DNA of 64,000 nt, taken from IMG/VR virus record IMGVR_UViG_3300031673_009915. The stretch is one strand, 5' to 3'. A model generated the notes under the pieces. That model was not told the origin of the DNA. It saw only the letters and a program-made list of their open reading frames with translations, and did no database searches. The position numbers and the translations under genes were made by a program. The stretch is from a virus. Below, piece after piece: positions 501-64,000 of this stretch (its first letter is position 1; each line of letters opens with the position of its first letter).

Positions 501-501
501 A

Positions 502-1134
502 ATGAAAAGAGTAATAAAAAATAAAAAAGGTGCAATAATATTTGAAGGAGATGATTTGCGTAATGCAGATTTTCAAAAAGCAAATTGTAGCTATGCTAAT
601 TTTCAAGAAGCAAATTGTGAGGATGCAGATTTTCAAAAAGCAAATTGTAGCTATGCTAATTTTCAAGAAGCAAATTGTGAGGATGCAGATTTTCAAAAAG
701 CATATTGTTGGAATGCTAATTTTCAAGAATCACATTGTTGGCATGTAAATTTTAAAGAAGCAAATTGTAAAGACGCTGATTTTCAAGGATCAGATTGCTG
801 GGGTGCAAATTTTAAAGAAGCGATTTGTAGAAATGCTAATTTTCAAGAAGCATATTGTTGGGGTGCAAATTTCAAAAAAGCAGATTTGCGTGGTGTGAAT
901 TTTAACAAAACAAATTTACTTTATGCAAATTTAAAAGGTATAATAACAGATACTCCAATTTTACAGATAAATGGAAGCCAACATCAAGTGATAAAATGGA
1001 AAGATCAAATTCAGATCGGCTGCATAATTGAACAAAAAAATTGGTGGTTGAAGAATTATAAAAAAACAATGAAAGAACATAATTACACACCAGAGCAAAT
1101 TAAAGAATATTATGAATATATTATAGGATATTAA
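502..1134 (+). CDS. pentapeptide-repeat protein, paralog 2
   Basis: ATG lies 1 nt after the upstream TAA. N-cap MKRVIKNKKGAIIFEGDDLRNADF, a long pentapeptide tract, and the conserved C-domain. Confidence 0.9.
   Translation: MKRVIKNKKGAIIFEGDDLRNADFQKANCSYANFQEANCEDADFQKANCSYANFQEANCEDADFQKAYCWNANFQESHCWHVNFKEANCKDADFQGSDCWGANFKEAICRNANFQEAYCWGANFKKADLRGVNFNKTNLLYANLKGIITDTPILQINGSQHQVIKWKDQIQIGCIIEQKNWWLKNYKKTMKEHNYTPEQIKEYYEYIIGY
565..702 (+). repeat. perfect 60-nt (20-aa, one beta-helix coil) tandem duplication, about 2.3 copies, inside PRP paralog 2
   Basis: gcagattttcaaaaagcaaattgtagctatgctaattttcaagaagcaaattgtgaggat occurs at 565-624 and 625-684. A partial third copy starts at 685. Confidence 0.9.
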
Positions 1135-1135
1135 A

Positions 1136-1903
1136 ATGAAAAGAGTAATAAAAAATAAAAAAGGTGAAGTAATACATGTAATAAATATGGAATTTGAAGG
1201 TGACGATCTGCGTAATGCAGACTTTCACGAAGCAATTTGTGCAAATGCAAATTTTAAAGAAGCAGATTGTGAAGGGGCTAATTTTCAAAAAGCATTTTGT
1301 GCAAATGCTAATTTTAAAGAAGCAAATTGTGAGGATGCAGATTTACGTGATGCGGATTGTTGGCATGCAGATTTTCAAAATGCAAATTGTGAAGGTGTAA
1401 ATTTTCAAAAAGCATATTGTTATAATACAATTTTTTATAAATCAAATTGTGTGTATGCAAATTTTGAAGAAACGAATTGTTTTAATGCATATTTTGAAGA
1501 AGCAATTTGTAGATATGCAATTTTTTATAAATCAAATTGTAGATATACATATTTCAAAAAAGCAGATTGTGAAAGTGCAAATTTTCAAAAAGCAGATTTG
1601 CATGATGCGAATTTTCAAGAAGCAAATTGTGAGGATGCTAATTTTGAGAAAGCAGATTTGCGTGGTGTAAATTTTCATAAAACAGATTTACTTCATGCAA
1701 ATTTAAAAGGTATAATAACAGATACACCAATTTTACAAATAAATGGAAGCCGAGATCAATTTATAAAGTGGAAAGATCAAATTCAAATCGGTTGTATAAT
1801 TGAAGAAAAAGAATGGTGGTTAGAAAATTATAATGAAACAATGCAAGAATATAATTACACACCAGAGCAAATTAAAGAATATTATGAATATATTACAGGA
1901 TGA
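1136..1903 (+). CDS. pentapeptide-repeat protein, paralog 3 (255 aa)
   Basis: TAA-A-ATG junction with paralog 2. Same N-cap, an extended repeat tract, and the same C-domain (..INGSRDQFIKWKDQIQIGCIIEEKEWW..). Confidence 0.9.
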   Translation: MKRVIKNKKGEVIHVINMEFEGDDLRNADFHEAICANANFKEADCEGANFQKAFCANANFKEANCEDADLRDADCWHADFQNANCEGVNFQKAYCYNTIFYKSNCVYANFEETNCFNAYFEEAICRYAIFYKSNCRYTYFKKADCESANFQKADLHDANFQEANCEDANFEKADLRGVNFHKTDLLHANLKGIITDTPILQINGSRDQFIKWKDQIQIGCIIEEKEWWLENYNETMQEYNYTPEQIKEYYEYITG

Positions 1904-3376: not shown

Positions 3377-4540
3377 CTATCTACTATATGAAGCAATAAA
3401 TGAACAGTGATTTGGTTTATCAATAGCAACTCCATTCGTATGAGCTCTTATTACACTCCCCTTAATTAAATATCCACTCCAGGAGCAAGAACCTGCCTCT
3501 ACTCCTGAATCAGCCGTGTCTTCACACAATCTATTTGCAGACACAAAAGTATCATCATGTATACTTAGATTATTTTGAGTAGAATCTTTTGAAATTCCTA
3601 AATATAATGTTGATGTTCGTGCTCCTGTATGCGTGAAAGTATATATACCAGATTTGTTAATGATAAATGTCAATCCTTCAGTATTTCCATTATATCCCGG
3701 ATGATTGTGAGTAAATAAATTTCCAAAACTTTCAACTTGAGTATTAAAACGTATGATACAGGTATCTACTGATCCATATCCATTATATATATTGAATGTT
3801 GTCTGACAATCTAATTTTTCATGTGTTATTTCCCATTTAGCAGAACTTGAACAAGCCAATAATTTTAATAAATTTTGAAATTTTGGTAATTGTATTTCAG
3901 TTAATAAATCTTGTGTTATTTCATCACTGCCTTCTCTCTGTATAGTCATTATATTTGATCCGCCTTGTGCAGCATGAAAAAACTCATATTCCTTTTCATA
4001 ATTATCTGCAAGTGTAGGTAAGTTAATAATGATATTACCACCTGCTGTGTCTCCAATATATTTCTGATATGTCTCTCCATCTGTTATAGTGTATGGAGAA
4101 TCTGCATTAGTAAGATATTTTACTTTTGTAAAATTATTAAAAATATTCCATAATTTATTCATGTCTGCTCCATCACTCATCCATTCCGTATATTCATTTT
4201 CAATAAGACCTACTGTGATAGATTCAATAGCGATATTTACCAAAAAAGCACTCAAATTTATTATGAATAATTTTTTTCCTTCAGGCAATGATCCTGAAAT
4301 TGTGACAGTAATTCCAGCACTAGGATCAGATAAGATCACCACATTGGTAAAATATGTATCCAAATTTACTGAACCTGTACTAATTATTTTTAGACACACA
4401 TCTCCGATATATTTTTGAAGCAATAGAGCCGTAACCGTTTTGTCTCGATCCTTTCCTGTTCCTCTTGTTGCCCAAAATACATCAGCGTCTTCTAAAGTTG
4501 TTGCAACCGGAAAATCCGGTATTGTAATTGTGTTTGCCAT
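3377..4540 (-). CDS. tail fibre / receptor-binding protein
   Basis: 387 aa, the terminal gene of the baseplate block. The C-terminal half is beta-rich (..GIYTFTHTGARTSTLYLGISKD..) and looks like a jelly-roll tip domain by eye. Confidence 0.55.
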   Translation of the reverse strand: MANTITIPDFPVATTLEDADVFWATRGTGKDRDKTVTALLLQKYIGDVCLKIISTGSVNLDTYFTNVVILSDPSAGITVTISGSLPEGKKLFIINLSAFLVNIAIESITVGLIENEYTEWMSDGADMNKLWNIFNNFTKVKYLTNADSPYTITDGETYQKYIGDTAGGNIIINLPTLADNYEKEYEFFHAAQGGSNIMTIQREGSDEITQDLLTEIQLPKFQNLLKLLACSSSAKWEITHEKLDCQTTFNIYNGYGSVDTCIIRFNTQVESFGNLFTHNHPGYNGNTEGLTFIINKSGIYTFTHTGARTSTLYLGISKDSTQNNLSIHDDTFVSANRLCEDTADSGVEAGSCSWSGYLIKGSVIRAHTNGVAIDKPNHCSFIASYSR

Positions 4541-39932: not shown

Positions 39933-40958
39933 CTATAAATTAACAAAAAGCGAACATTCTTTTTTTAAAAAACAATCTTTACATTCATCATATTCATCAT
40001 AATCTAATCCAAAATCATTTCCATGAGGACAAGATTTCTTTTCTTTTTTCTTTTTAAATTTTTTAATCCGAGTACTAACTTCTTCCTTTGATTCTTCTTC
40101 TACTTCTTCCTTTGATTCTTCTTCTACTTCTTCCTTTGATTCTTCTTCTACTTCTTCCTTTGATTCTTCTTTTTTCTTTTTAAATTTTTTAATCCTGACA
40201 TTAGATTCTTCTGATTCTTCTTTTTTCTCTATTGCATAATAAATATCATATAATTCTTGATATGAAGGTACATATAAAAGAGAATCTAAAGAATAACTTT
40301 CTTTCAATAAAATATCCTCATCATATTGTTCTTCTCTAGAAACAAATTTCAAAGCAACCGGTTCTTTATATTCTATTATTTTTCCTTTTCTAGTATAAGT
40401 TTTTAATTCTCCAACAAAGTCTATAGAAGAACCTTCTTCTAAATCAGCGAAAGTCACAAGTTCTTCTCCTTTTCTTGCTTTCATTCTTAAATTTTTTTCA
40501 ATCCAGTTAAAAGTAACATCAAATATTTGAATTCCTTTTTCTTCTTCATCAAGATCAATTACATTATAAAGAGTTCGATGCCTTGGCCATAATTTTTTTT
40601 CGCTTTCTTCTTCCCCTTCTTCTTTATATCGATACATTTCTTCACATACAGGACAAGATTTTCCAAACATTCTTTGTAGACATAAATATTCTTTATTTTC
40701 AATTCCTATATTATTATGAGTATAAATTTCAAGCACATAATCTCCTGAACCTATTTCAAGTTTTTTTGAATGATTTTTAGTTTTCACAATATAAGGAATT
40801 ATGTCTATAAGATTTTCTTCTTTAATTTTATAGAATGAAACCCCTTCAATTTTTTTCTTATCAAAATAATCTTTAACATAAATTCTATCTTTATTATTAA
40901 CATTATCTTCTATTTGTTGTCTTAAACTTTCTTTAAAATCATTTTTTTTACAAATCAT
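39933..40958 (-). CDS. T4 gp32-like ssDNA-binding protein with acidic repeat tail and C-terminal Cys cluster
   Basis: ..IDIIPY..LEIYTHNNIG..CLQRMFGKSCPVCEEM..LWPRHRTLYNVIDL..IQIFDVTFNWIEKNL.. parallels gp32 IRFLP..ILVNHGF..CSSTHGDYDSCPVCQYI..KRKTSYWANILVV..VFKYRFGKKIWDKI. Confidence 0.6.
   Translation of the reverse strand: MICKKNDFKESLRQQIEDNVNNKDRIYVKDYFDKKKIEGVSFYKIKEENLIDIIPYIVKTKNHSKKLEIGSGDYVLEIYTHNNIGIENKEYLCLQRMFGKSCPVCEEMYRYKEEGEEESEKKLWPRHRTLYNVIDLDEEEKGIQIFDVTFNWIEKNLRMKARKGEELVTFADLEEGSSIDFVGELKTYTRKGKIIEYKEPVALKFVSREEQYDEDILLKESYSLDSLLYVPSYQELYDIYYAIEKKEESEESNVRIKKFKKKKEESKEEVEEESKEEVEEESKEEVEEESKEEVSTRIKKFKKKKEKKSCPHGNDFGLDYDEYDECKDCFLKKECSLFVNL
40079..40170. repeat. 24-nt tandem repeat, about 3.8 copies (EESKEEVE units) in the SSB tail
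   Basis: cttcttcctttgattcttcttcta repeats at 40079, 40103, 40127 and 40151. Confidence 0.9.
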
Positions 40959-40972
40959 AATTTATCTCCTTT

Positions 40973-41488
40973 TTATTTTATATTTTTATTTAATTTTTTT
41001 ATATTCTTATTTAATTTTGATCTTATATTCTCAGATACTTCTTCTCCTTTTTTATTTCTTAAAGAAGGTTCTGAAAAATATCCTCCTAAATGTAATTTTA
41101 CTAAATTTTCCAAAGCTGCTTTTTTATAATCTAATGCTTTAATACAAGCATTTAAAAGATTATAATTATAATTAACTGTATTATAACACTCATTATGACA
41201 AACCACTTCTTCTTCAGAATTAAGAGAACTCTCAAGAAGTTTTTCTGTTACTTTTACTCCTCTCTGTGCGAATTCATTTCTAATCTTTAAATCTAATTCT
41301 GCCCGAAGTTTTATAATTTTATCTTTAAAAACTCCTTTTTCATTTTCCATTTTTATTGTTTTTTCCATATATTCCATAAAAATAACAGCTTGCTTTAACC
41401 ATTCTTTTTCTAATTGATATATGTCAATCTCCAAATCTTTATAAATACCCAAATCTTCTACTTTTAAACAAGTTACATCTGTTTTCAC
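40973..41488 (-). CDS. hypothetical helical protein (possible recombination mediator by position)
   Basis: 171-aa ORF between the PRP pair and the SSB gene. Confidence 0.5.
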   Translation of the reverse strand: MKTDVTCLKVEDLGIYKDLEIDIYQLEKEWLKQAVIFMEYMEKTIKMENEKGVFKDKIIKLRAELDLKIRNEFAQRGVKVTEKLLESSLNSEEEVVCHNECYNTVNYNYNLLNACIKALDYKKAALENLVKLHLGGYFSEPSLRNKKGEEVSENIRSKLNKNIKKLNKNIK

Positions 41489-41489
41489 T

Positions 41490-42182
41490 TTATCCTCCTA
41501 TAATATATTTATAATATTCTTTAATTTGCTTTTGAGTGTAATTATGTTTTCTCATTGTTTTTTTATAATTCTCTAACCACCAATCTTTTTGCTCAATTAT
41601 GCAACCGATTTGAATTTGATCTTTCCATTTTATTACGTGATGTTTGCTTCCATTTATTTGTATAATTGGAGTATCTGTTATTATGTCTTTTAAATTTGTA
41701 TAAAGTAAATTTGTTTTGTTAAAATTCACACCACGTAAATCCGCTTTTCCAAAATTTGCACTTGCACAAATCGCTTCTTTAAAATTTGCATTCCAACAAT
41801 TTGCACCCTCAAAATTAGCACTCCAACAATTCGCACCATTAAAATCAGCTTCACTACAGTCAGCATCTTTAAAATTTGATTTGATACAATTTGATTCCTT
41901 AAAATTTACATGCCAACAATGTGATTCTTGAAAATTAGCATTCCAAGAATATGCTTTCTCAAAATTTGCACTTCTACAAACTGATCCTTGAAAATTTGCA
42001 TTTGCACAAATTGCTTTTTGAAAATCTGCATTTCTACAAATCGCTTCTTTAAAATTTGCACTCCAACAATTTGCTTCTTGAAAATTAGCATCTTTACAAT
42101 TTGCTTTTTGAAAATCTGCATTACGCAAATTATTTCCTTCAAATATTATCGCACCTTTTTTATTTTTTATTATTCTTTTCAT
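41490..42182 (-). CDS. pentapeptide-repeat protein, paralog 4
   Basis: Same N-cap (MKRIIKNKKGAIIFEGNNLRNADF), pentapeptide tract and C-domain (..KYIIGG) as the other paralogs. 1-nt spacing from paralog 5. Confidence 0.9.
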   Translation of the reverse strand: MKRIIKNKKGAIIFEGNNLRNADFQKANCKDANFQEANCWSANFKEAICRNADFQKAICANANFQGSVCRSANFEKAYSWNANFQESHCWHVNFKESNCIKSNFKDADCSEADFNGANCWSANFEGANCWNANFKEAICASANFGKADLRGVNFNKTNLLYTNLKDIITDTPIIQINGSKHHVIKWKDQIQIGCIIEQKDWWLENYKKTMRKHNYTQKQIKEYYKYIIGG

Positions 42183-42183
42183 T

Positions 42184-42846
42184 TTAATATCCTATAATAT
42201 ATTTATAATATTCTTTAATTTGCTTTTGAGTGTAATTATGTTTTCTCATTGTTTTTTTATAATTCTCTAACCACCAATCTTTTTGCTCAATTATGCAACC
42301 GATTTGAATTTGATCTTTCCATTTTATTACGTGATGTTTGCTTCCATTTATCTGTAAAATTGGAGTATCTGTTATTATACCTTTTAAATTTGCATAAAGT
42401 AAATTTGTTTTGTTAAAATTCACACCACGTAAATCCGCTTTTCCAAAATTTGCACTTGCACAAAGCACTTCTTTAAAATTTGCATCTTTACAATTTGCTT
42501 CTTGAAAATTTGTTCTCCAACAACCTGCTTTATAAAAATTAGCATCTACACAATGTGCTTTATAAAAATCTGCATAACTACAATCTGCTTCTTGAAAATT
42601 TGCACTTACACAAATCGCTTCTTTAAAATTTGCATTCCAACAATTTGCACCCTCAAAATTAGCACTCCAACAATTCGCACCATTAAAATCAGCTTCACTA
42701 CAGTCAGCATCTTTAAAATTAACACCATACAAATTCGCACCCTCAAAATTTGTATATAAACAATATGCTTTATACAAATCCGCATGGCGTAAGTCATCAC
42801 CATCAAATATTACTATACCTTTTTTATTTTTTATTATTCTTTTCAT
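42184..42846 (-). CDS. pentapeptide-repeat protein, paralog 5
   Basis: Same architecture. It shares a ~225-nt near-identical segment, inverted, with paralog 6. Confidence 0.9.
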   Translation of the reverse strand: MKRIIKNKKGIVIFDGDDLRHADLYKAYCLYTNFEGANLYGVNFKDADCSEADFNGANCWSANFEGANCWNANFKEAICVSANFQEADCSYADFYKAHCVDANFYKAGCWRTNFQEANCKDANFKEVLCASANFGKADLRGVNFNKTNLLYANLKGIITDTPILQINGSKHHVIKWKDQIQIGCIIEQKDWWLENYKKTMRKHNYTQKQIKEYYKYIIGY

Positions 42847-47699: not shown

Positions 47700-48539
47700 C
47701 TAATGAATGTTTTTTTTCCTGTTCCACAAAGGCCAGGGCCAGGAAGGTAAATTTTTTTCAAGATCAATAAAATAAATAATATTTAGTTCATCTCTTTTCA
47801 TATAGTCCTTCGCCAATTGTTCCTCCGTAAATCCTTTTTCGTATATGTATTCCAAAATTTTTTCTCTCTCCCTTATTAAAAAATTTGATAAATGACAATC
47901 CTCAAAATTTCTGGAATTAGCTTTTTCCGATACATCTATTTTATAGGGAGTGGACATATAATCATATTTTCCACATTTATTTTTTGGTACAAAAATGGAA
48001 CCAAACCTCCCTGTCATAACCCAGGAAGTAGAATCAACTGAATACCAAGGGTATCTAATCAATATACTTATAGAAGATACTCCAAAACCGTGGAATTTAA
48101 CTCTCGGAAAGCCTCTATCATCTATAATATAATCCATTACAACATCAAGCCATTCTATTTTTTGATTGGTAGTTTTGTCATTGGAAGGACTTATACCAAT
48201 ATAGTCCATTTCAGCAATCATTTTATTAAGCCATTCAAAATCCTCTCCTTGATGAAAAACATGAATCAATTTTTCCTTAGGAATACCTCGACCTATCATA
48301 TAATAATAATTATCGTATCCTTTTCTTGCAGAAAATTCTATTTGATCCTTAGTAGGTGGAATACCTGGTTTTCCGGGAATAACATCTAAATTTACCACAT
48401 AATCAAAATATTCATTGTATTGAAGAATAAAATCAATGTAAATATCTATATCAATCTCTATGCTTTTATTCCATGCGGAAAATGCACCCGAATCCAATAG
48501 CAATGATTTATTTTTATTTTTCATAGGAAGATTTGACAT
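47700..48539 (-). CDS. dpdA: DpdA-like DNA (7-deazaguanine) transglycosylase, TGT superfamily
   Basis: 279 aa with N-terminal LLLDSGAFSAW. Co-operonic with queC/D/E/F and folE. Confidence 0.6.
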   Translation of the reverse strand: MSNLPMKNKNKSLLLDSGAFSAWNKSIEIDIDIYIDFILQYNEYFDYVVNLDVIPGKPGIPPTKDQIEFSARKGYDNYYYMIGRGIPKEKLIHVFHQGEDFEWLNKMIAEMDYIGISPSNDKTTNQKIEWLDVVMDYIIDDRGFPRVKFHGFGVSSISILIRYPWYSVDSTSWVMTGRFGSIFVPKNKCGKYDYMSTPYKIDVSEKANSRNFEDCHLSNFLIREREKILEYIYEKGFTEEQLAKDYMKRDELNIIYFIDLEKNLPSWPWPLWNRKKNIH

Positions 48540-48927
48540 TCAGTTTTATTCCCCCTCTTGAATTGAATTCTGATAATACAACCATGGATAATGGACCGCA
48601 CACCTTGACCAAATCAAAAAGAATAGTATTGTTAATAGTCTCCATAAATGAAGGATGACTCCGAAATGAAAATAAATATAATTTTAATGACTTGGTTTCA
48701 ATACAACTTTGGTCAGGAATATACCGTATCGTTATTGTTGCATAGTCGGGCTGAGAGGTCTTTGGACATAGAGATGTAAATTCCGATGTAATTATCTCTA
48801 TTTCATATTTAATTCCCACAAATTGATTTTGAAAAACTTCAAGAATATTTTCTGAAGGTGTGTCAAATTTATATTCTGTTTTTTTATTTCCAAGAACATT
48901 CAAATGAGAAACATCATCTTTTTTCAT
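48514..48927 (-). CDS. queF: NADPH-dependent 7-cyano-7-deazaguanine (preQ0) reductase
   Basis: [38 protein letters not shown] closely parallels B. subtilis QueF [38 protein letters not shown]. Confidence 0.85.
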   Translation of the reverse strand: [137 protein letters not shown]

Positions 48928-48930
48928 TAC

Positions 48931-49641
48931 TTATATCCTCTCATTCATAATTTTATTATATTCCTTTCGTTGTGATAGAAATATAGGATCCTCGATTCCC
49001 GCTTCTTCAAATCCTTTTGATCTGAGGATACAAGAAGGACATTTTCCACAAGGCGGATATACTCCTTCATAACAAGTATGACTATAGGCAAGAGATTCCA
49101 TACAACCTTTAAGTGTCCTTGCCATCAAAATTGATTCTGCTTTCGTTTTCCACATCAATGGTGTGTGAATGGTAAATTCATAGTTCATTGCCAAAGACAG
49201 GCTTACCTGGAAACTTTTAATCGTGTTGTCCCGACAATCAGGATATCCCGAATAATCCATTTGGCATACTCCGCATACGATATCTGAAATACCTAGTGGA
49301 AATGCCTTCATGGCTGCTATGGTAAGCATATAGATATTTCTACCAGGAACGAAAGAAGCAGGCAAATCCTGTGCTGACCTATGTTTCCCATTTATAATCA
49401 TTTCTCTATTCGTAAAAAATAGAGCTGAATCAGCTATACCTTTCATAAGAATATCATGCATTTCAATCAATTCAATTTCCATCCTCTGTGAAATAATTCG
49501 TGCACTCTGTATCTCCAACCTATGGCGTTGTCCATAATCAATGTTCAACGCCAAAATATCTTCAAAATTTTCTTTCGCCCAATGCAGGCAAATGGTAGAA
49601 TCTTGTCCTCCTGAAAATAATACAAGAGCTTTCTTTTTCAT
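48931..49641 (-). CDS. queC: 7-cyano-7-deazaguanine synthase
   Basis: LVLFSGGQDSTICL PP-loop, DYGQRH, and the C-terminal Zn cluster C..CGKCPSC. Confidence 0.85.
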   Translation of the reverse strand: MKKKALVLFSGGQDSTICLHWAKENFEDILALNIDYGQRHRLEIQSARIISQRMEIELIEMHDILMKGIADSALFFTNREMIINGKHRSAQDLPASFVPGRNIYMLTIAAMKAFPLGISDIVCGVCQMDYSGYPDCRDNTIKSFQVSLSLAMNYEFTIHTPLMWKTKAESILMARTLKGCMESLAYSHTCYEGVYPPCGKCPSCILRSKGFEEAGIEDPIFLSQRKEYNKIMNERI

Positions 49642-49650
49642 TCCATCCTC

Positions 49651-50547
49651 CTATGATAATAATTTCATCAATTCTTCACGAGTATCTTGATTCTCTAAAA
49701 AAATACCTTTTAAAGAAGAAGTTACCATTTTTGAATTCTGTTTCTGTATTCCTCTCATCTGCATACATAGATGTTGTGCCTCTATTATACATGCCGCACC
49801 CAAAGGATCTAATTCATTCATAAGAAATTCAGTCACCTGGTTTCCAATTCGTTCCTGTATCTGAAGTCGTCTTGCGAATATTTCCAATATTCGCGCCAAC
49901 TTGGATATACCAACAATCTTTTCTTTTGGAATATATGCGATATGAGCTTTTCCAATGAAGGGCGACATATGATGCTCACACATACTATATAGTTCAATAT
50001 CCTTCAGAAGGATAATCGCATCATATCCCTCAGATCCAAATATCTTAATTTCCTTTTTAGGATCCCTATTATAACCAGAATATAATTCTTTCCACGAATT
50101 AACTACCCTTTTTGGAGTTTCTTGGAGACCTTCTCTATTGATATCTTCACCTATATATTGTAATTGCCTAATCACAGAATCTTGAATTGATCGGTATTCC
50201 TCTTCTCCCTCCCAAAAATAATGAACCCACTCATCTACTTCATACAACCACCGTGTCCTCTTTGACTTGATAAATCCTGTATTGATACTCTTATGAAGGG
50301 AGAAGAAATCATTTTTTGGAAAATAATTCCTTGTAGTCCCTCTGTCAATAATGTCATCTACTACTAATGTCTTTTCACTAATTTTATCCTTCAATACAAT
50401 AGGAAGATTCATTTCTTTTGATAATGCAACACCAAAACACATCCCTCCTCGGGGAACTGGGTATATACTTGTATATTCTGAAGATGCAAGAGATTTAGCA
50501 ATTGTTATTACATCAGAAAGTAATTGGGGTGCAGTATAATTTTTCAT
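49651..50547 (-). CDS. folE: fusion: type I phosphoribosyltransferase-like domain + GTP cyclohydrolase I
   Basis: N-terminal PRPP motif LVVDDIIDRGTT. The C-terminal part has REGLQETPKRV, SMCEHHMSPF, GISKLARI, QIQERIGNQ and HLCMQMRGI (GCH-I). Confidence 0.8.
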   Translation of the reverse strand: MKNYTAPQLLSDVITIAKSLASSEYTSIYPVPRGGMCFGVALSKEMNLPIVLKDKISEKTLVVDDIIDRGTTRNYFPKNDFFSLHKSINTGFIKSKRTRWLYEVDEWVHYFWEGEEEYRSIQDSVIRQLQYIGEDINREGLQETPKRVVNSWKELYSGYNRDPKKEIKIFGSEGYDAIILLKDIELYSMCEHHMSPFIGKAHIAYIPKEKIVGISKLARILEIFARRLQIQERIGNQVTEFLMNELDPLGAACIIEAQHLCMQMRGIQKQNSKMVTSSLKGIFLENQDTREELMKLLS

Positions 50548-50556
50548 AAGTCTCCT

Positions 50557-51189
50557 CTATCTCATTCCTATATATTTATGTAATTGTATATTGAGTTGTA
50601 CAAAATAATATTTATTTGCCTGTAACCAATCACATATAATTAAAGGTTCTAATTCTCCATGAATCGGACTGATTATAATATTTACAAATGGATTAATATC
50701 ATGTATATAATGTATCCAATCTTGTTTTGCATATAAATCATCTAAATCTTTTACTATAAATTTAATAAAATCATATTTTGCCAAGTATCTAATATCTACT
50801 AAAAATAAATCGCGTGATTTAAAATCAATCACATAACTTATTTGATCTTTTCTAACCCACTCTGAAAAATAAATTATAGGAACTGATCCATTAGTTTCAA
50901 TTACTATTTTTTTTTCTTTCTCTAAAAAAAACATTATCAATGCTTCCAATTTTTGTTTTTGAAGAAAAGGTTCTCCTCCCGTAATTGTTATAATATCTGT
51001 TTTAATTTTAGGAATGTCTACAAATCTCATCAATGACCCTTCCTCTACATCTACAACATCACAATAATCACAAGACAAATTACATCCCGCAAAGCGAATG
51101 AAAGTGGAAATACTTCCTTGACCAAATGCATTACATTCACCATTTATTGAAGTAAAAATTTCTTTTATTTTCATTATTTTTTCTTCCAT
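50557..51189 (-). CDS. queE: 7-carboxy-7-deazaguanine synthase (radical SAM)
   Basis: IKEIFTSINGE..FIRFAGCNLSCDYCD CxxxCxxC cluster. Confidence 0.8.
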   Translation of the reverse strand: MEEKIMKIKEIFTSINGECNAFGQGSISTFIRFAGCNLSCDYCDVVDVEEGSLMRFVDIPKIKTDIITITGGEPFLQKQKLEALIMFFLEKEKKIVIETNGSVPIIYFSEWVRKDQISYVIDFKSRDLFLVDIRYLAKYDFIKFIVKDLDDLYAKQDWIHYIHDINPFVNIIISPIHGELEPLIICDWLQANKYYFVQLNIQLHKYIGMR

Positions 51190-51536
51190 TCTGCATAAGA
51201 ATTAGATGTTTCATATAATCGAATCCTTTCAAGACCTTCTTGAAATATTAAAAATAATTTTTTTTGAATCCATAAAACCAGAGTTTCACATGTAGGTATT
51301 TCAAACATATCATTTAAAAATTTATGATCTAATTGTTCAATTATACATTCATTCACAATCTTTTTCAAATCTCCAAAATCCATAATAAATGAAGAATAAT
51401 TTTTATAAGAACTAGGACATTTTGAAATTTCAATTTCTAATTTAAAGGAATGTCCGTGTATAAGAGCACATTTTCCTTTATAATCAGGTAAAAAATGAGC
51501 CGTTTCGAATTCAAATCTTTTCGTAATTGATAACAT
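51174..51536 (-). CDS. queD: 6-carboxy-5,6,7,8-tetrahydropterin synthase
   Basis: FEFETAHFLP..KCALIHGHSFKLEIEI is the PTPS/QueD signature. Confidence 0.8.
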   Translation of the reverse strand: MLSITKRFEFETAHFLPDYKGKCALIHGHSFKLEIEISKCPSSYKNYSSFIMDFGDLKKIVNECIIEQLDHKFLNDMFEIPTCETLVLWIQKKLFLIFQEGLERIRLYETSNSYAEWKKK

Positions 51537-57002: not shown

Positions 57003-58694
57003 ATGTTAGAATTATTTCAAACCGTTACTTTTATAAATGGAATAACAATATTGATTTTTGGAATTTTTATTTTAATAAAAAATAGAAATCAGAAATCAGT
57101 TCGGGCTTTCTTTCTTTTCTCTGTATTTTTTGCCGTTTGGATGATTGCTTTTTCCTTTCAAGTTATAGAAAAAAATTATAATAATTCATTGATATTAACT
57201 AAAATATTTATGCTGGGTGCTAATTTTATTCCTGTTGCTTTTTTATATTTTATTTGTATTATTATTGATGTTTGTAATAAGAAAATAATAAAATATATTG
57301 TATCTTTATTTTGGATATGGGCAATTATATTGAGTCTGTTTTTATTGACACCTTTTTATATAGATTATTTAAAACCAAAACTTATTTTTCATTGGTGGCT
57401 TGTTCCAGGTTTGTTTTTTCATTTTCAATTTATAACTACAGAAATCATATTTTTAATATGTATTTTTTTGGTTATAAAAAATCATAAAAAAATTGGACAA
57501 CAATCTAAAGATTTATTACTTGGAGCAGGTGTTGCGATTATATCTGGAAGTTCTAACTATTATTTATGTTATGATATTTTTATTATGCCTTATTTAAATT
57601 TTTTAATGCCTGTACAATTGATGGTATATGTGTATTGTATAATGAAATATAATATAATGGATGTTAGAAAATATCTTTTAAAAGGTGTGTTTTCTTATTT
57701 AATTTTTTCTATAATTTTTTCTATTCCTATTTTTGTTATACATTTTATATACATACCATTTGATTTATTTCAAATTATTTTAATAATGATATGTATTTTT
57801 TTAGCTTTAATTTATAAAAATTCTTTTATAATAGGAGAATTGGAAAATAAAGTTGATATTCGAACAGAAGAATTACAGTCAGCTAATGAAGAACTTGAAA
57901 CAATAAATACAGAATTAGTTACAACAAGAGACAAACTTTGGAGTGAAATGCAAATCGCAAAAAAAATTCAAACAGTTCTTCTTCCTAAGAATCCAAAAAT
58001 AAAAGGATATGAAATATCTGCATACATGAAACCTGCTGATGATGTAGGAGGAGATTATTATGATGTGATAAATGTTACTAATGGAAGCTGGTTGATTATA
58101 GGTGATGTGTCTGGTCATGGGGTGCCTGCGGGTCTTGTTATGATGATGGTGCAAACATGTATACACAACACATTAAATATTTTTCCAGATATTTCTCCTT
58201 CTAAATTATTAAAGATAATAAATAAAACAATTACTGAAAATATTCAGTTAATGGGTGAAGATAAATATATGACGATGACTGTTTTTAATATTAACAAAAA
58301 TGATAAATTTATTTTTGCAGGTCTTCATCAAAATATACTAATTTATAGAAAAAAAACAAATGTTATTGAATCAATTCAAACAGATGGAATGTGGTTGGGT
58401 TTAATGAAAAATATTCAAAATATGCTAAAAAATGATTGTTTTAAATTGGATGAAGGTGATATTTTATTATTATACACTGATGGTATAACAGAGGCATGGA
58501 AAAAAGAAAGTAATTATGAAAAACGAGAAATTGAAAAAGACATGTTTGGAGAAAAAAAATTAAAACAAATTTTCTTTAATTCAGAAAAAACCACACCTGT
58601 TCTTATACAAAATAATATTATTAAAGAATTAAAAAAATATACATGTAAAGATGATGTTACAATGCTTATTATAAAAAAGGAGGAAAATTTATGA
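57003..58694 (+). CDS. membrane sensor PP2C-type phosphatase (multi-TM N-domain + SpoIIE/RsbU-like domain)
   Basis: About 7 N-terminal TM helices, a coiled-coil linker, then ..ADDVGGDYYDVI..LIIGDVSGHGVPAGLVMMMV..LLLYTDGITEA..DDVTMLIIK, the SpoIIE-family signature. Confidence 0.8.
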   Translation: MLELFQTVTFINGITILIFGIFILIKNRNQKSVRAFFLFSVFFAVWMIAFSFQVIEKNYNNSLILTKIFMLGANFIPVAFLYFICIIIDVCNKKIIKYIVSLFWIWAIILSLFLLTPFYIDYLKPKLIFHWWLVPGLFFHFQFITTEIIFLICIFLVIKNHKKIGQQSKDLLLGAGVAIISGSSNYYLCYDIFIMPYLNFLMPVQLMVYVYCIMKYNIMDVRKYLLKGVFSYLIFSIIFSIPIFVIHFIYIPFDLFQIILIMICIFLALIYKNSFIIGELENKVDIRTEELQSANEELETINTELVTTRDKLWSEMQIAKKIQTVLLPKNPKIKGYEISAYMKPADDVGGDYYDVINVTNGSWLIIGDVSGHGVPAGLVMMMVQTCIHNTLNIFPDISPSKLLKIINKTITENIQLMGEDKYMTMTVFNINKNDKFIFAGLHQNILIYRKKTNVIESIQTDGMWLGLMKNIQNMLKNDCFKLDEGDILLLYTDGITEAWKKESNYEKREIEKDMFGEKKLKQIFFNSEKTTPVLIQNNIIKELKKYTCKDDVTMLIIKKEENL

Positions 58695-58973: not shown

Positions 58974-59264
58974 ATGACAATTGTAGAATATATCAAATAT
59001 ATAAAACGAAGATGTGATTGTAATAAGGGACTAGTGTATTGGAAAAAAGAATGGAAAAGTAGAATAAGAGCACGAGGACACTGGATGAATGATTATGCTC
59101 AGTTACTTACAAATACAAGCAAGTATAGAACAAAATATCGATATATAGCAGAATGTGAATTGTGCGGAAAATTCTACTTCGCAACAAAAAGAAAAAAAGA
59201 AATGATAATATCTTTAAAATTTCTTAATTTTGGTTATAAAAAAAAGGAATATAATAAAAAATGA
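58974..59264 (+). CDS. hypothetical basic protein with CxC/CxxC motifs
   Basis: 96-aa ORF inside the segment bracketed by the 219-bp repeats. Confidence 0.5.
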   Translation: MTIVEYIKYIKRRCDCNKGLVYWKKEWKSRIRARGHWMNDYAQLLTNTSKYRTKYRYIAECELCGKFYFATKRKKEMIISLKFLNFGYKKKEYNKK

Positions 59265-59746
59265 AATTTGATGCAAAAAAATTCTTAAAAGATTATAATA
59301 TATCTTATAATACCGAAGGCAGTAATTGTCAAGAAGGATGGATAAATATAACTTGCCCATTTTGTAATGACATTTCTAATCACGGGGGATTTAATTTAGA
59401 AAAAGGTTATTATAATTGCTGGAAATGTAAACATCACCATCTTGATAATGTTGTTAGTGCTCTTTTGTCTTGCAATGTTTCAAAAGCAAAACAAATAATA
59501 AAAGAATATGAAAGTTTTATACCTGCTTACACAGAAAAGTCAGAAATATTTTCAGCACAAAAAAAAGCGGTATGGGATTTTTATTTTTTTTTAGTAGAAT
59601 GGTATGAAATAAATCCAGAATCTTCACAAATAGATTTTACATATTTAATTCAATTAAGAGATGCTATGATAAAAGAAAAAATAAAAGATTCTCTTTCTAT
59701 TCTTTCAGAAATAATTCAATTACATAATCAAAATAACAATGTTTGA
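59261..59746 (+). CDS. primase-type zinc-ribbon domain protein (paralog of the primase N-terminus) fused to the 66-aa domain
   Basis: ..NCQEGWINITCPFCNDISNHGGFNLEKGYYNCWKCKHH.. parallels the primase ..NCQEGWVNITCPFCDDDANHGGFNIEKEYYNCWKCGFH.. Confidence 0.6.
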   Translation: MKFDAKKFLKDYNISYNTEGSNCQEGWINITCPFCNDISNHGGFNLEKGYYNCWKCKHHHLDNVVSALLSCNVSKAKQIIKEYESFIPAYTEKSEIFSAQKKAVWDFYFFLVEWYEINPESSQIDFTYLIQLRDAMIKEKIKDSLSILSEIIQLHNQNNNV

Positions 59747-59773
59747 TATAGAAAGATTTCTTCTTGAATATAA
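59555..59773. repeat. 219-bp direct repeat, copy B
   Basis: Matches 58700-58918. Confidence 0.9.
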
Positions 59774-60620
59774 TGTATCAACCTGGACAGAAGGAAAAAA
59801 TTGTCAAGAAGGATGGGTCAATATAACCTGTCCTTTTTGTGATGATGATGCTAATCATGGAGGATTTAATATAGAAAAAGAATATTATAATTGTTGGAAA
59901 TGTGGTTTTCATTCTTATAAAGAAATTTTAAAAAAATTTTCAGATATATCATATAAAGAATTATTAGAAGAATATTTTATAAATTTTAATATAAAAAAGA
60001 AAAAAGATTCTTTAATAAAAAAATCTTTTTCTTTTCCTTTCGGTACAAGACAAATTTCAGAAAGACATAAAAAATATTTGTTAAATAGAAATTTTGATCC
60101 TGATCAATTAGAAAAGGATTGGTTTCTATTAGGAACAGATTGTTTAGGAGATTATAAATTTAGAATCGTAATTCCTATTATATTTAATAATAAAATAGTT
60201 TCTTTTCAATGCAGAGATATTACAGACAAACAAGTTTTACGATATAAAGCATGTGAAAAAGAAAAAGAAATTATTCATCATAAAAATATTTTATATGGAT
60301 TAGATTATATTCAAAATGATCGATGTGTGCTTGTTGAAGGTGTTACAGATGTGTGGAGAATTGGAAAAGGGGCTGTATCCTGTTTTGGTACAGGATATAC
60401 AAAAAATCAAATATATCTTCTTTCTACTTATGCAAAACAAATATTTATTTTATTTGATTCTGTAAGAATAGCTCAGAAGATAGCTGAAAAAATAGGATGG
60501 GAATTATCTTTACTAAATAATACAATAGAAATTATTACAATACCTTCTTCTATAAAAGATCCAGCAGAAATGAGTTTTGAAGATGCTTTATATTTACGAA
60601 AAAATTTATTAAAATATTGA
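59739..60620 (+). CDS. DNA primase (Zn-ribbon + TOPRIM)
   Basis: N-terminal CPFC..H..CWKC ribbon. TOPRIM-like CVLVEGVTDVWRIGKG and IFILFDS. Confidence 0.65.
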   Translation: MFDIERFLLEYNVSTWTEGKNCQEGWVNITCPFCDDDANHGGFNIEKEYYNCWKCGFHSYKEILKKFSDISYKELLEEYFINFNIKKKKDSLIKKSFSFPFGTRQISERHKKYLLNRNFDPDQLEKDWFLLGTDCLGDYKFRIVIPIIFNNKIVSFQCRDITDKQVLRYKACEKEKEIIHHKNILYGLDYIQNDRCVLVEGVTDVWRIGKGAVSCFGTGYTKNQIYLLSTYAKQIFILFDSVRIAQKIAEKIGWELSLLNNTIEIITIPSSIKDPAEMSFEDALYLRKNLLKY

Positions 60621-61017: not shown

Positions 61018-61242
61018 ATGAAAGAATATAAAAGATTACAAGAATTTGCTGATAGAGATTATGAAGGAAATTTGTTGGGTTATTCAGTTTCTGATAGTAT
61101 ACTTGACGAAATATATCAGGATGACAATTCTCCTGAACAAGATGTTTTAGTAGAATATTTTGAAAAAAAATATAAATGTGAACTTTCATTTATAGACAAT
61201 CCAAATTCAAAAGAGGGTGGATATAAAATATATCCTAAATAA
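61018..61242 (+). CDS. hypothetical acidic protein
   Basis: 74-aa ORF. Confidence 0.5.
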   Translation: MKEYKRLQEFADRDYEGNLLGYSVSDSILDEIYQDDNSPEQDVLVEYFEKKYKCELSFIDNPNSKEGGYKIYPK

Positions 61243-61249
61243 AAAGTTT

Positions 61250-61425
61250 ATAATTACACTCTGGAACAGATTAAGGAATATTATGAATATATTACAGGAT
61301 ATTAAAATGAAAAGAATAATAAAAAATAAAAAAGGTGAGATAATATTTGAAGGTGACGATCTGCGTAATGCAGACTTGCATGACGCAAATTGTAAAAGTG
61401 CAAATTTTCAAGAAGCAGATTGTAG
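61250..61425 (+). repeat. 176-nt perfect direct repeat, copy 1 (orphan PRP 3' stub + junction + 5' cap)
   Basis: Identical by eye to 61854-62029 (offset 604 nt). 61250-61306 encodes only the last ~17 codons (..NYTLEQIKEYYEYITGY) of a PRP gene, with no body upstream. Confidence 0.85.
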
Positions 61426-61909
61426 TTATGCAGATTTTTATAAAGCACATTGTGTAGATGCTAATTTTTATAAAGCATGTTGTTGGAGAACAAATTTTCA
61501 AGAAGCAAATTGTAAAGATGCAAATTTTAAAGAAGTGCTTTGTGCAAGTGCAAATTTTGAAAAAGCGGATTTACGTGGTGTGAATTTTAACAAAACAAAT
61601 TTACTTTATACAAATTTAAAAAATGCATATTGTTATGATGCTAATTTTGAGAAAGCAGATTTGCGTGGTGTAAATTTTCATAAAACAAATTTACTTTATG
61701 CAAATTTAAAAGATATAATAACAGATACACCAATTTTACAAATAAATGGAAGCCAAGATCAAGTAATAAAGTGGAAAAATCAAATTCAAATCGGCTGCAT
61801 AATTGAAGAAAAAGAATGGTGGCTTGAAAATTATAATGAAACAATGAAAGAACATAATTACACTCTGGAACAGATTAAGGAATATTATGAATATATTACA
61901 GGATATTAA
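61307..61909 (+). CDS. pentapeptide-repeat protein, paralog 6
   Basis: Start set at MKRIIKNKKGEIIFEGDDLRNADL. The ORF-track start at 61217 reads through the orphan stub. Canonical architecture. Confidence 0.9.
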   Translation: MKRIIKNKKGEIIFEGDDLRNADLHDANCKSANFQEADCSYADFYKAHCVDANFYKACCWRTNFQEANCKDANFKEVLCASANFEKADLRGVNFNKTNLLYTNLKNAYCYDANFEKADLRGVNFHKTNLLYANLKDIITDTPILQINGSQDQVIKWKNQIQIGCIIEEKEWWLENYNETMKEHNYTLEQIKEYYEYITGY

Positions 61910-61910
61910 A

Positions 61911-62573
61911 ATGAAAAGAATAATAAAAAATAAAAAAGGTGAGATAATATTTGAAGGTGACGATCTGCGTAATGCAGACTTGCATGACGCAAATTGTAAA
62001 AGTGCAAATTTTCAAGAAGCAGATTGTAGACATGCAAATTTTCAAAAAGCAAATTGTAGCTATGCTAATTTTCAAAAAGCAGATTGCAGGTATGCTGATT
62101 TTCAAAAAGCAAATTGTAGCTATGCTAATTTTAAGGAAGCAAATTGTAGCTATGCTAATTTTCAAAATGTAGCTTTCCCCTTTGCAGATTTTCAAAAAAC
62201 AGATTGCAGGCATGCAAATTTTAAAAATTCTAATTGTTTTGGTGCTTTTTTTGGAAAAGCAGATTTACAGGATGCAAATTTTAAAAAAGCACGTTGTAGG
62301 TATGCAGATTTTGAGAAAGCAGATTTGCATGGTGTGAATTTCCACAAAACAGATTTACTTCATGCAAATTTAAAAGATATAATAACAGATACACCAATTT
62401 TACAAATAAATGGAAGCCGAGATCAAGTGATAAAGTGGAAAAATCAAATTCAGATAGGATATGTTATTGAACAAAAAAATTGGTGGTTAGAAAATTATAA
62501 TGAAACAATGCAAGAACATAATTACACTCTGGAACAAATTAAAGAATATTATAAATATATTACAGGATATTAA
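61911..62573 (+). CDS. pentapeptide-repeat protein, paralog 7
   Basis: TAA-A-ATG junction. Canonical architecture. Confidence 0.9.
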   Translation: MKRIIKNKKGEIIFEGDDLRNADLHDANCKSANFQEADCRHANFQKANCSYANFQKADCRYADFQKANCSYANFKEANCSYANFQNVAFPFADFQKTDCRHANFKNSNCFGAFFGKADLQDANFKKARCRYADFEKADLHGVNFHKTDLLHANLKDIITDTPILQINGSRDQVIKWKNQIQIGYVIEQKNWWLENYNETMQEHNYTLEQIKEYYKYITGY

Positions 62574-62574
62574 A

Positions 62575-63357
62575 ATGAAAAGAGTAATAAAAAATAAAAA
62601 AGGTGCAATAATATTTGAAGGAAATAATTTGAGAGGTGCAGATTTACGTGATGCGGATTGTTGGCATGCAGATTTTCAAAGATTGGACTGCTGGAATGTA
62701 AATTTTCAAGAAGCAAATTGTATAGAGGCAAATTTTTATAAATCAAATTGTGGGTATGCAAATTTTGAAGAAACGAATTGTTGGAATGTAAATTTTCAAG
62801 AAGCAGATTTACATGATGCAGCTTTTGAAAAAGCATATTGTGAAGGTGTGAATTTTCAAAAAGCAATTTGTAGTAATGCAGATTTTTATAAAGCACATTG
62901 TGTAGATGCTAATTTTTATAAAGCAGATTGTTGGCGTGCAAATTTTCAAGAAGCAGATTTTCAAGAAGCAGATTTTTATAAAGCACATTGTGTAGATGCT
63001 AATTTTTATAAAGCAGATTGTTGGCGTGCTAATTTTGAAGAAGCAAATTGTAGGAATGTGAATTTTCAAGAAGCAAATTGTGAAGGTGCAAATTTTGAGA
63101 AAGCAGATTTGCGTGGTGTAAATTTTCACAAAACAGATTTACTTCATGCAAATTTAAAAGATATAATAATAGATACTCCAATTTTACAAATAAATGGAAG
63201 CCGAGATCAATTTATAAAATGGAAAGATCAAATTCAAATCGGCTGCATAATTGAACAAAAAGATTGGTGGTTGAAGAATTATAAAAAAACAATGAAAGAA
63301 TATAATTACACACCAGAGCAAATTAAAGAATATTATGAATATATTATAGGATATTAA
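62575..63357 (+). CDS. pentapeptide-repeat protein, paralog 8 (260 aa)
   Basis: TAA-A-ATG junction. Contains an internal 90-nt-period duplication at 62878-63033. Confidence 0.9.
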   Translation: MKRVIKNKKGAIIFEGNNLRGADLRDADCWHADFQRLDCWNVNFQEANCIEANFYKSNCGYANFEETNCWNVNFQEADLHDAAFEKAYCEGVNFQKAICSNADFYKAHCVDANFYKADCWRANFQEADFQEADFYKAHCVDANFYKADCWRANFEEANCRNVNFQEANCEGANFEKADLRGVNFHKTDLLHANLKDIIIDTPILQINGSRDQFIKWKDQIQIGCIIEQKDWWLKNYKKTMKEYNYTPEQIKEYYEYIIGY

Positions 63358-63358
63358 A

Positions 63359-64000
63359 ATGAAAAGAGTAATAAAAAATAAAAAAGGTGCGATAATATTT
63401 GAAGGAGATGATTTGCGTAATGCAGATTTTCAAAAAGCAAATTGTAGCTATGCTAATTTTCAAGAAGCAGATTGTTGGTGCGCGAGTTTTTATAAATCAG
63501 ATTGTAAAGATGCTAATTTTCAAGAAGCATATTGTTGGGGTGCAAATTTTGAAAAAGCAGATTTGCGTGGTGCTAATTTTAAGGAAGCATATTGTTGGAG
63601 TGCAAATTTTAAAGAAGCGATTTGTGCAAGTGCAAATTTTGAGAAAGCAGGTTGTAGTTATGCAGATTTTAAAGGATCAGATTGTAATGGGGCAAGTTTT
63701 AAAAAAGCAGGTTGTCGGAGAACAAATTTTGAGAAAGCGGGTTGTACAGAGGCTAATTTTCAAAATGCAGATTGTTGGCGTGCTAATTTTGAAGAAGCAA
63801 ATTGTAGGAATGTGAATTTTCAAGAAGCAAATTGTGAAGGTGCAAATTTTGAGAAAGCAGATTTGCGTGGTGTAAATTTTCATAAAACAAATTTACTTTA
63901 TGCAAATTTAAAAGGTATAATAACAGATACTCCAATTATACAAATAAATGGAAGCAAACATCACGTAATAAAATGGAAAGATCAAATTCAAATCGGCTGC
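63359..64000 (+). CDS. pentapeptide-repeat protein, paralog 9 (3' end outside window)
   Basis: ATG at 63359, 1 nt after the upstream TAA, with the frame open to the window edge. MKRVIKNKKGAIIFEGDDLRNADFQKANCSYANF.. and the C-domain start ..IQINGSKHHVIKWKDQIQIGC. It is not in the ORF track because no stop is reached. Confidence 0.85.
   Translation, partial: MKRVIKNKKGAIIFEGDDLRNADFQKANCSYANFQEADCWCASFYKSDCKDANFQEAYCWGANFEKADLRGANFKEAYCWSANFKEAICASANFEKAGCSYADFKGSDCNGASFKKAGCRRTNFEKAGCTEANFQNADCWRANFEEANCRNVNFQEANCEGANFEKADLRGVNFHKTNLLYANLKGIITDTPIIQINGSKHHVIKWKDQIQIGC

Follow-up and report, generated by a model that had tools for sequence, protein, structure and literature searches.

Pentapeptide-Repeat Genes and Their Layout

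The virus record IMGVR_UViG_3300031673_009915 of IMG/VR, here referred to as the window (the whole stretch of 64,000 nt that was analysed), is a tailed-phage genome with a GC content of 27% and carries nine paralogous genes for pentapeptide-repeat proteins (PRPs). According to the listing of open reading frames (ORFs) and their translation, the nine frames occupy 5,946 nt, that is 9.3% of the window. A copy consists of an N-terminal hairpin cap, a tract of pentapeptide repeats and a 64-aa alpha/beta domain at the C-terminus (hereafter the C-domain), and a hidden Markov model (HMM) of this domain, searched against the six-frame translation of the window, gives exactly nine matches. Moreover, the seven complete copies are matched by the Pfam model PF00805 with E-values from 1e-23 to 1e-40, above the cutoff of 20.2 bits. 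An earlier reading made from the letters of the DNA (the sequence-only reading) had described nine paralogs amounting to about 5.9 kb, or about 9% of the window, and its count, its coordinates and its proportions are all confirmed by the ORF listing, the translation and the C-domain HMM.

At the beginning of the window three copies follow one another on the plus strand. A0 (3–500) is truncated at its 5′ end by the window start and retains 20 pentads and the C-domain, which the HMM matches; A1 (502–1134) is complete, encodes 210 aa, matches PF00805 and was modelled with AlphaFold2 (AF2); A2 (1136–1903; 255 aa), the last copy of this plus-strand array, carries an insert of 6 aa in its N-cap, terminates in ITG and is the most acidic of all (net charge −17). 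The minus strand carries two complete copies, B2 (42184–42846; 220 aa), which lies directly downstream of a clamp-loader gene and reads FDG in the N-cap, and B1 (41490–42182; 230 aa), the most basic copy (net charge +9), which ends in IIGG. The last part of the window is occupied by four plus-strand copies: C1 (61307–61909; complete, 200 aa), whose terminal coil is duplicated, C2 (61911–62573; complete, 220 aa), where IGY replaces IGC, C3 (62575–63357; complete, 260 aa), which contains an internal duplication with a 90-nt shift, and C4 (63359–64000), truncated by the window end.

Neighbouring genes within an array are linked by TAA-A-ATG, with the motif AGGA in the last codons of the upstream gene about 7 nt before the next ATG. 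A core of the Shine-Dalgarno type is also present at 39 of the 59 other genes of the window, which makes the interpretation of AGGA as a Shine-Dalgarno sequence reasonable; the junctions and the last-codon Shine-Dalgarno sequence of the sequence-only reading are therefore borne out. The AGGA of C1 is supplied by a remnant copy, of which only 56 nt from the 3′ end are left (61251–61306, plus strand); it reads NYTLEQIKEYYEYITGY followed by a stop codon and is located between a small ORF (61018–61242) and C1. This relic delimits the tandem array on its 5′ side, a partial unit being expected at the edge of an array subject to unequal crossing-over. At the end of B1 the IIGY typical of the family is replaced by IIGG, and the resulting AGGAGGA is the Shine-Dalgarno sequence of a GTG-initiated gene (40973–41488, minus strand) encoding a 171-aa protein of unknown function (phrog_1069/2058).

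Repeat Core, Caps and Selection

The copies belong to the pentapeptide-repeat superfamily, for which at least eight tandem pentapeptides of the A(D/N)LXX type are required: 20 to 35 pentads per copy are obtained in one count and 24 to 36 in a tally of the core that includes the partial first pentad. At the DNA level the core consists of a degenerate unit of 30 nt repeated in tandem (about 70% matches with Tandem Repeats Finder), which encodes the decapeptide x-A-[ND]-F-x / x-A-x-C-x. Over all nine copies the 252 pentad centres comprise 117 Phe, 93 Cys and 41 Leu, with a strict alternation of Phe and Cys, and variability is greatest at pentad positions 1 and 5. The proteins are 200, 210, 220, 220, 230 and 260 aa long, a series in steps of 10 aa, and the 255 aa of A2 include the insert in its cap. 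The Phe/Cys alternation, seen for example at 61355–61715, leads to a predicted helix interior with two Phe and two Cys ladders; each protein contains 8 to 15 Cys residues, and Leu is used instead in the other family members inspected.

The two ends of the proteins are conserved but not invariant, contrary to their description in the sequence-only reading. The C-domains share 78–91% amino acid identity among the copies, and cap exceptions are found in A2 (the 6-aa N-cap insert), B2 (FDG) and C2 (IGY for IGC). Over the last 84 codons the pairwise DNA identity is 83–97%, the pooled proportion of synonymous differences (pS) is 0.26, that of nonsynonymous differences (pN) is 0.078 and their ratio is 0.30; for the N-cap pN/pS is 0.28. 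Such divergence at silent sites indicates that the copies are old enough to have diverged and that the caps are held by purifying selection and not by homogenisation alone. In the same way, the core that had been called hypervariable is indeed diversified, in the form of a mosaic 30-nt repeat with tracts shared between copies, and is not hypermutated. Hypermutation by a diversity-generating retroelement was considered and rejected: differences between copies and between haplotypes hit all bases, and the variation proceeds by tract exchange. No reverse transcriptase is present among the annotated ORFs of the window, in a search for this enzyme that was not exhaustive.

Predicted Structure

The AF2 model of A1, based on 35 aligned sequences, has a mean pLDDT of 94.7 and begins with an N-terminal hairpin (residues 3–16) and continues as an unbroken beta-helix, after which four short strands and two helices complete the chain. 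No loop insertions disturb the 5-residue bridge pattern of the helix body. In a Foldseek search of this model against the PDB, all significant matches were PRPs, i.e., designed beta1 solenoids, Np275/276, HetL, MfpA, QnrB1, AlbG and EfsQnr. The predicted fold is a right-handed quadrilateral (Rfr-type) beta-helix, in agreement with what the sequence-only reading had anticipated, and the Pfam check that it had proposed is positive for PF00805.

The isolated C-domain was modelled with a pLDDT of 89.6. No fold match was found in the PDB (best Foldseek E-value 1.8), nor any meaningful sequence match in the same database, and no Pfam model matches the domain. In BFVD, the model is similar to A0A2I7QWZ5 and A0A516MQ54, two uncharacterised phage proteins, with TM values of 0.77–0.79 and an rmsd of 0.8–0.9 over 56 residues.

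Exchange Between Copies and a Second Haplotype

Near-identical tracts of 80–296 nt, with 95–99% identity and relative shifts of 30–255 nt, are shared by different copies, and exact shared tracts reach 162 nt. The longest joins B1 (392–687, numbered within the copy) to B2 (362–657) over 296 nt at 97.6% identity with a shift of −30; the same two genes share another 126 nt (B1 307–432, B2 127–252; 99.2%, shift −180). Furthermore, B2 (226–465) and C1 (76–315), whose loci are 19 kb apart, are 96.7% identical over 240 nt (shift −150), and A0 (1–165) matches C4 (256–420) over 165 nt at 98.2% (shift +255), a tract that includes 125 exactly identical nucleotides. Duplications inside single genes are found in A1 (60-nt shift) and, as already mentioned, in C3. 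The background identity between whole copies is roughly 72–80% (blastn), and the identity of the shared tracts lies so far above it that they are attributed to recent exchange and not to chance.

A search with the junction motif retrieved a 3,179-nt metagenome contig, Ga0307380_10090869 (L007), which carries four copies. Its reverse complement corresponds to window positions 61915–63738 at 98.7% identity, with 23 clustered mismatches, and, past the shared exact tract of 125 nt, continues as window positions 1–1482 at 99.87%. Where the window has C4 at its end and A0 at its start, this contig has a single 250-aa hybrid, made of the N-terminal half of C4 and the C-terminal half of A0. With respect to the window, 19 codons are changed (12 nonsynonymous and 7 synonymous), and the changes are concentrated in the PRP cores, eight of them within codons 152–175 of C3; the 1,482 nt of A0-A1-A2 contain only two differences. 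This contig is a second haplotype of the phage of the window. In it the C array runs on into the A array, and the arrays at the two ends of the window are thus most likely one tandem array, C1–C4 … A0–A2, of at least seven copies. The copies lie where the sequence-only reading had placed them, but they probably form two loci rather than three. Either the strains differ in copy number as a result of recombination in the repeat cores, or one of the two assemblies collapsed through the 125-nt repeat. A simple circular wrap of the window was also considered and is rejected, since its end and its start share only the exact tract of 125 nt and then diverge.

The recombination among copies that had been suspected from the sequence is borne out by these shifted tracts and by the hybrid gene. 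The proposal that the conserved caps serve as recombination handles fares less well, the exchanged tracts and the junction in the second haplotype lying mostly inside the repeat cores and not only in the caps.

The C-Domain in Other Phages

A profile of the C-domain built from the window copies was searched against 1.84 billion cluster representatives (E ≤ 1e-3) and retrieved 255 homologous representatives, with a best E-value of 8.5e-14. In every homologue listed the domain is at the C-terminus, and the proteins measure about 50–290 aa. A word-indexed search with a single C-domain returned nothing, and a full-length profile returned generic long PRPs only. The N-terminal parts of the best 150 of the 255 homologues are pentapeptide repeats in 64 cases, hexapeptide-like in 24, of other kinds in 40 (among them YdcK-type solenoids, GGxFHGG repeats, leucine-rich repeats (LRRs) and DUF4116-like repeats) and almost absent in 22. 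That a constant C-domain recurs on many scaffolds unrelated to each other speaks for a function of its own and not for a fold-specific cap. The PRP members found elsewhere also have the N-terminal hairpin, with the pattern MK.xIKN..G.II.

The domain is described by the motif G-[ST]-x-[HDN] ... I-G-C ... W ... N-Y ... Y-[TS]-x-x-[QE]-I-x-E-Y, which is present in the window copies; its G, C, W and Y are invariant over a 50-sequence family alignment, and the reverse HMM built from this alignment recovers all nine window copies. Compared with the rest of the family, the window copies have Met (KKTMKE) in place of the usual Gly (xxIGxx), and often Asp in place of the His of GS[RK]H. Proteins with this domain match the PHROGs families phrog_5353, 32789, 7964, 923 and 7713, all of unknown function. 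The genomic contexts retrieved are phage-like, i.e., early or replication regions near helix-turn-helix regulators, DnaB, methyltransferases and integrase. At 17 of the 19 loci with a C-domain there is one copy, and arrays are found only in the second haplotype and in the window. The uncharacterised phage proteins that combine a solenoid with this domain (e.g., the IMG/VR loci L059, L013 and L010) are true members of the family, with the same C-terminal domain; they differ from the window in having one copy per locus, as opposed to at least nine shuffled tandem copies built of Phe/Cys decapeptide units. One IMG/VR record, L060 (IMGVR_UViG_3300025391_000302), has two C-domain proteins about 3 kb apart, one hexapeptide-like (GDGSSIG; 1–564) and one YdcK-like (3710–3967), and from these two different scaffolds it follows that one phage can hold several unrelated family members.

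The sequence-only reading could place the architecture in no described system. In fact, the association of N-hairpin, PRP and C-domain recurs in phages, under the PHROGs label of unknown function, and the domain is found with other solenoids too; the architecture itself is recurrent, and what is unusual is the nine-copy shuffled expansion. Multi-copy PRPs were also sought among GenBank phages, and the candidates were rejected, the two records inspected showing multiple matches around a single annotated PRP gene. In Salmonella phage ST104, orf19 is a small PRP with a non-repeat C-terminal region, encoded in the early-left accessory region, where it lies between ral and gene 17. A directed comparison of the two sequences aligned its beta-hairpin half (I.G....I......GC....W) with the C-domain at 12.9 bits, a marginal homology, and its helical half is unmatched; unlike the window genes, it is single-copy. 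For gp073 of Listeria phage WIL-1, homology to the C-domain was not detected by HMM.

The module VMAP-M19 has been proposed as an invader-sensing component of vWA-MoxR conflict systems. Its Pfam model (PF20022) has matches below threshold in 5 of the 50 family members (E-values 0.003–0.07; 14–16 bits against a gathering threshold of 27). The two members examined match it in the same register, at profile positions 67–110 of 115, and the one window C-domain that was scanned is unmatched. A full-text search of the literature found no function described for a phage PRP or for the C-domain.

Genomic Setting

No close relatives of the window were found among GenBank phages (the best identity of its PolA being 25%), in IMG/VR or in GTDB genomes; the only one is the 3.2-kb metagenome contig described above. 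B2 and B1 are located between the clamp-loader and PolA genes on one side and, on the other, the gene of the 171-aa protein, an SSB-like gene and a UvsX-like gene. The C … A array comes last in a plus-strand operon with genes for a helicase, a 7TM-PP2C phosphatase and a primase. No terminator-like sites were found inside the array, at a GC content of 27% at which terminator and promoter scans are uninformative (promoter counts equalled those of shuffled controls). From this layout, the PRP copies would be co-expressed with the replication genes.

Several neighbouring genes have features of their own. The 563-aa protein encoded at 57003–58694 (plus strand), between helicase and primase and upstream of the PRP array, has an N-terminal HisKA_7TM region and a SpoIIE/PP2C phosphatase domain; a membrane phosphatase is an unusual cargo in a phage replication operon. 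The overlapping ORFs at 59261–59746 and 59739–60620 (plus strand) both match the N-terminal part of the primase family phrog_47, and the primase may be split or partly duplicated. On the minus strand, the SSB-like protein (39933–40958) has, close to its C-terminus, about four tandem copies of the acidic motif SKEEVEEE with KKFKKKKE flanks, and after them a tail rich in Cys. Also on the minus strand are genes of 7-deazaguanine synthesis, encoding GTP cyclohydrolase I (49651–50547), QueC (48931–49641) and a radical-SAM QueE-like protein (50557–51189), and the unannotated ORFs beside them (51174–51536, 48514–48927 and 47700–48539) could encode QueD or DpdA. Judged from gene content, this set suggests that the phage DNA carries a modified guanine; modification of guanine in phage DNA is a known anti-restriction strategy.

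Comparison With Named Families and Rival Explanations

The proteins of the window share with Qnr, MfpA, AlbG, McbG and EfsQnr the right-handed quadrilateral beta-helix and a similar size (about 180–220 aa), and these are the structural matches in the PDB. They differ in having the 64-aa alpha/beta C-domain in place of a dimerisation helix, Phe/Cys centres and mixed charge, and in being multi-copy and phage-borne. All named NCBIfam models of PRPs score far below cutoff: Qnr gives 31–46 bits (cutoff 240), QnrA/B/S and related models 20–44 (425–500), MfpA about 20–21 (360), HetL 62–80 (260), Alr5209 57–78 (125) and PipB2 43–56 (354), and by sequence the copies do not belong to the PRPs of the Qnr/MfpA/AlbG group. 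In the A1 model, neither a C-terminal dimerisation helix nor the Qnr loops A and B are present, the C-terminus being made of four strands and two helices. As calculated from the amino acid composition of the nine copies, a strongly electronegative, DNA-like surface is not a feature of the window copies as a set: net charge extends from −17 (A2) to +9 (B1) and pI from 4.8 to 8.9, and for the solenoid by itself net charge extends from −10 to +4. Acidic copies are A2 (pI 4.8), C3 (net charge −10) and perhaps C1, and six of the nine are near neutral or basic (pI 6.4–8.9).

These comparisons bear directly on the idea that the proteins are partners of the host gyrase or topoisomerase IV in the manner of Qnr, MfpA and AlbG, either protecting these enzymes from poisons (toxins or abortive-infection effectors) or retuning supercoiling to suit the replication of the phage. 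The fold is common to MfpA, QnrB1, AlbG and EfsQnr, the genes are embedded in replication modules, none of the annotated ORFs of the window, whose annotation is incomplete, encodes a phage topoisomerase, and phage-encoded gyrase modulators exist (PMC10886550). Set against this are the low scores of the Qnr and MfpA models (20–46 bits against 240–500), the lack of loops of the Qnr type, the different alpha/beta domain in place of a single dimerisation helix and the mixed charge, with B1 at +9; moreover, one conserved target leaves nine divergent surfaces and lengths unexplained, and the explanation is regarded as unlikely. The model of the sequence-only reading, that is a panel of B-DNA mimics acting as decoys for restriction-modification or other DNA-sensing defences, shares some of these difficulties. 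The dimensions of the PRP helix are roughly DNA-like, as established for MfpA, A2 and C3 are acidic and could qualify, and homologues of the family lie in early or accessory regions, such as orf19 of ST104 by ral. Uniform mimicry of B-DNA does not fit six copies that are near neutral or basic, the 7-deazaguanine genes of the phage represent a different anti-restriction route, and there is no similarity to mimics of the Ocr or ArdA type; given the spread of net charge and the distance from the Qnr and MfpA models, the DNA-mimic idea fits poorly and appears rather unlikely.

The gene context suggests another possibility, in which the proteins are accessory or scaffold components of the replisome or recombination machinery of the phage, for instance as spacers or adaptors for the clamp loader, SSB or UvsX, the paralogs being functionally redundant. 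The tight translational coupling with the clamp-loader gene and the genes on the SSB side, where the end of B1 provides the Shine-Dalgarno sequence of the next gene, and the position of the second array after the helicase-primase genes are in favour of this role. Factors of the core replication machinery are, as a rule, conserved and present in one copy, whereas this family is dispensable in most phages, its solenoid type varies, variable regions are the habitual location elsewhere and the strain-level differences concentrate in the predicted binding surface; a replisome role is accordingly held to be decidedly unlikely. It is highly improbable that the copies are non-functional selfish or slippage-prone repeat DNA, or the assembly artefact of a smaller family: although 30-nt repeats and exact shared tracts of up to 162 nt are badly handled by short-read assemblers and the window start falls exactly on a repeat boundary, none of the nine frames is interrupted, a pN/pS of 0.3 is combined with substantial divergence at synonymous sites, and a separate contig reproduces C2-C3 and A0-A1-A2 at 98.7–99.9%.

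Proposed Role of the Family

The explanation that we prefer, tentatively and at somewhat less than an even chance, is a lineage-specific expansion, diversified by recombination, of a widespread phage family of accessory proteins, putative binders or inhibitors that combine a variable solenoid with a constant C-module and are aimed at variable host factors. It is favoured by the strain-level differences, which fall on the surface of the repeat core, together with the 30-nt periodicity of the core. According to this proposal, at least nine copies would be organized in two arrays, one of them running across the window ends, and each would encode a small cytoplasmic beta-helix of 6–9 coils with an N-hairpin cap and alternating Phe and Cys ladders in its interior, its variable corners being rich in Trp, Tyr and charged side chains. 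From the location of the translationally coupled genes in replication and recombination operons, the proteins would probably be made together early or in the middle of infection. Owing to the 30-nt periodicity, decapeptide units could be added, deleted and exchanged by gene conversion and unequal crossing-over, inside one copy, from copy to copy and from array to array; the outcome would be a set of helices of differing length, surface and charge, with the C-domain kept by purifying selection. Each paralog may then bind and sequester or inhibit, through its solenoid surface, a different and probably polymorphic host protein involved in defence or DNA metabolism, and the shared C-domain may serve all of them alike, either by dimerising or by docking onto a single partner.

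Some observations weigh against this explanation. The nucleotide alignment of the copies, a check that the sequence-only reading had proposed, brought out the shared shifted tracts, but the pairwise homoplasy index (PHI) test on the conserved C-terminal block is not significant (p = 0.27), with 41% of informative site pairs incompatible, so that the evidence for recombination rests on the long, shifted, identical tracts. The hybrid gene of the second haplotype could be the product of an assembly collapse through the exact 125-nt repeat. The HMMs of PADLOC-DB match neither the four copies that were searched nor the isolated C-domain, no member of the family carries an experimental or homology-based functional annotation, and the placement among replication genes fits a role in DNA metabolism as well as one in counter-defence.

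The logic of the proposed repertoire has parallels on both sides of the conflict between hosts and viruses. Poxviruses have multi-copy families of ankyrin-repeat/PRANC (F-box-like) proteins, in which a variable repeat scaffold is joined to a constant C-terminal module. Gene "accordions" of viral anti-host factors are also known, with phage cases in 10.1101/2022.04.14.488369 and PMC13096335. The window family would share with the poxvirus proteins and the accordions a copy number changed by recombination, and to the poxvirus proteins it has no sequence or fold relationship, the likeness being one of analogy only. In bacterial conflict systems, PRPs and other superstructure-forming repeats are protein-recognition modules that follow a logic of constant and rapidly varying modules (PMC7159879; 10.1101/2022.07.19.500537). 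VMAP and NLR-like systems, whose sensors are PRPs, LRRs or tetratricopeptide repeats, combine a repeat recognition surface with a constant domain as the window family does (PMC7159879; 10.1101/2022.07.19.500537); unlike them, the window family is without an NTPase or effector and belongs to the phage side, not the host side, and the likeness of C-domain family members to VMAP-M19 is below threshold.

A further-reaching version, which we consider unlikely as well, would make the C-domain a fixed connector through which exchangeable solenoid baits, whether PRP, hexapeptide, YdcK, LRR or of another type, all feed into the same pathway. The phage family would then be a germline-encoded binder repertoire diversified by shuffling of 30-nt cassettes against polymorphic host defences, comparable to the ANK-PRANC families of poxviruses or to arrays of variable receptors in immune systems. 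Conceivable candidates for the common pathway are a protease or chaperone of the host, a machine of the phage, and an immune sensor akin to VMAP-M19.

Meaning for Phage Biology

Phage PRPs are common in databases, and a full-text literature search found none that is characterised. The locus defines an unannotated C-terminal domain, with neither a Pfam model nor a PDB fold, that is common to many phage solenoid proteins, and the sharing of this domain points to a modular design in which a variable scaffold is combined with a constant module. It also represents a natural experiment, since in at least nine paralogs the constant parts are under purifying selection and the putative binding surface is shuffled and variable between strains, as one would expect if the repertoire were the product of an arms race. 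Moreover, the paralogs form a ready-made panel of related putative binders, graded in length and charge, for the search of targets. If these targets are proteins of defence or DNA metabolism, the family would add to the counter-host factors of phages a class that is both new and widespread, and it would also be an example of how the shuffling of repeat cassettes diversifies the factors of a phage.

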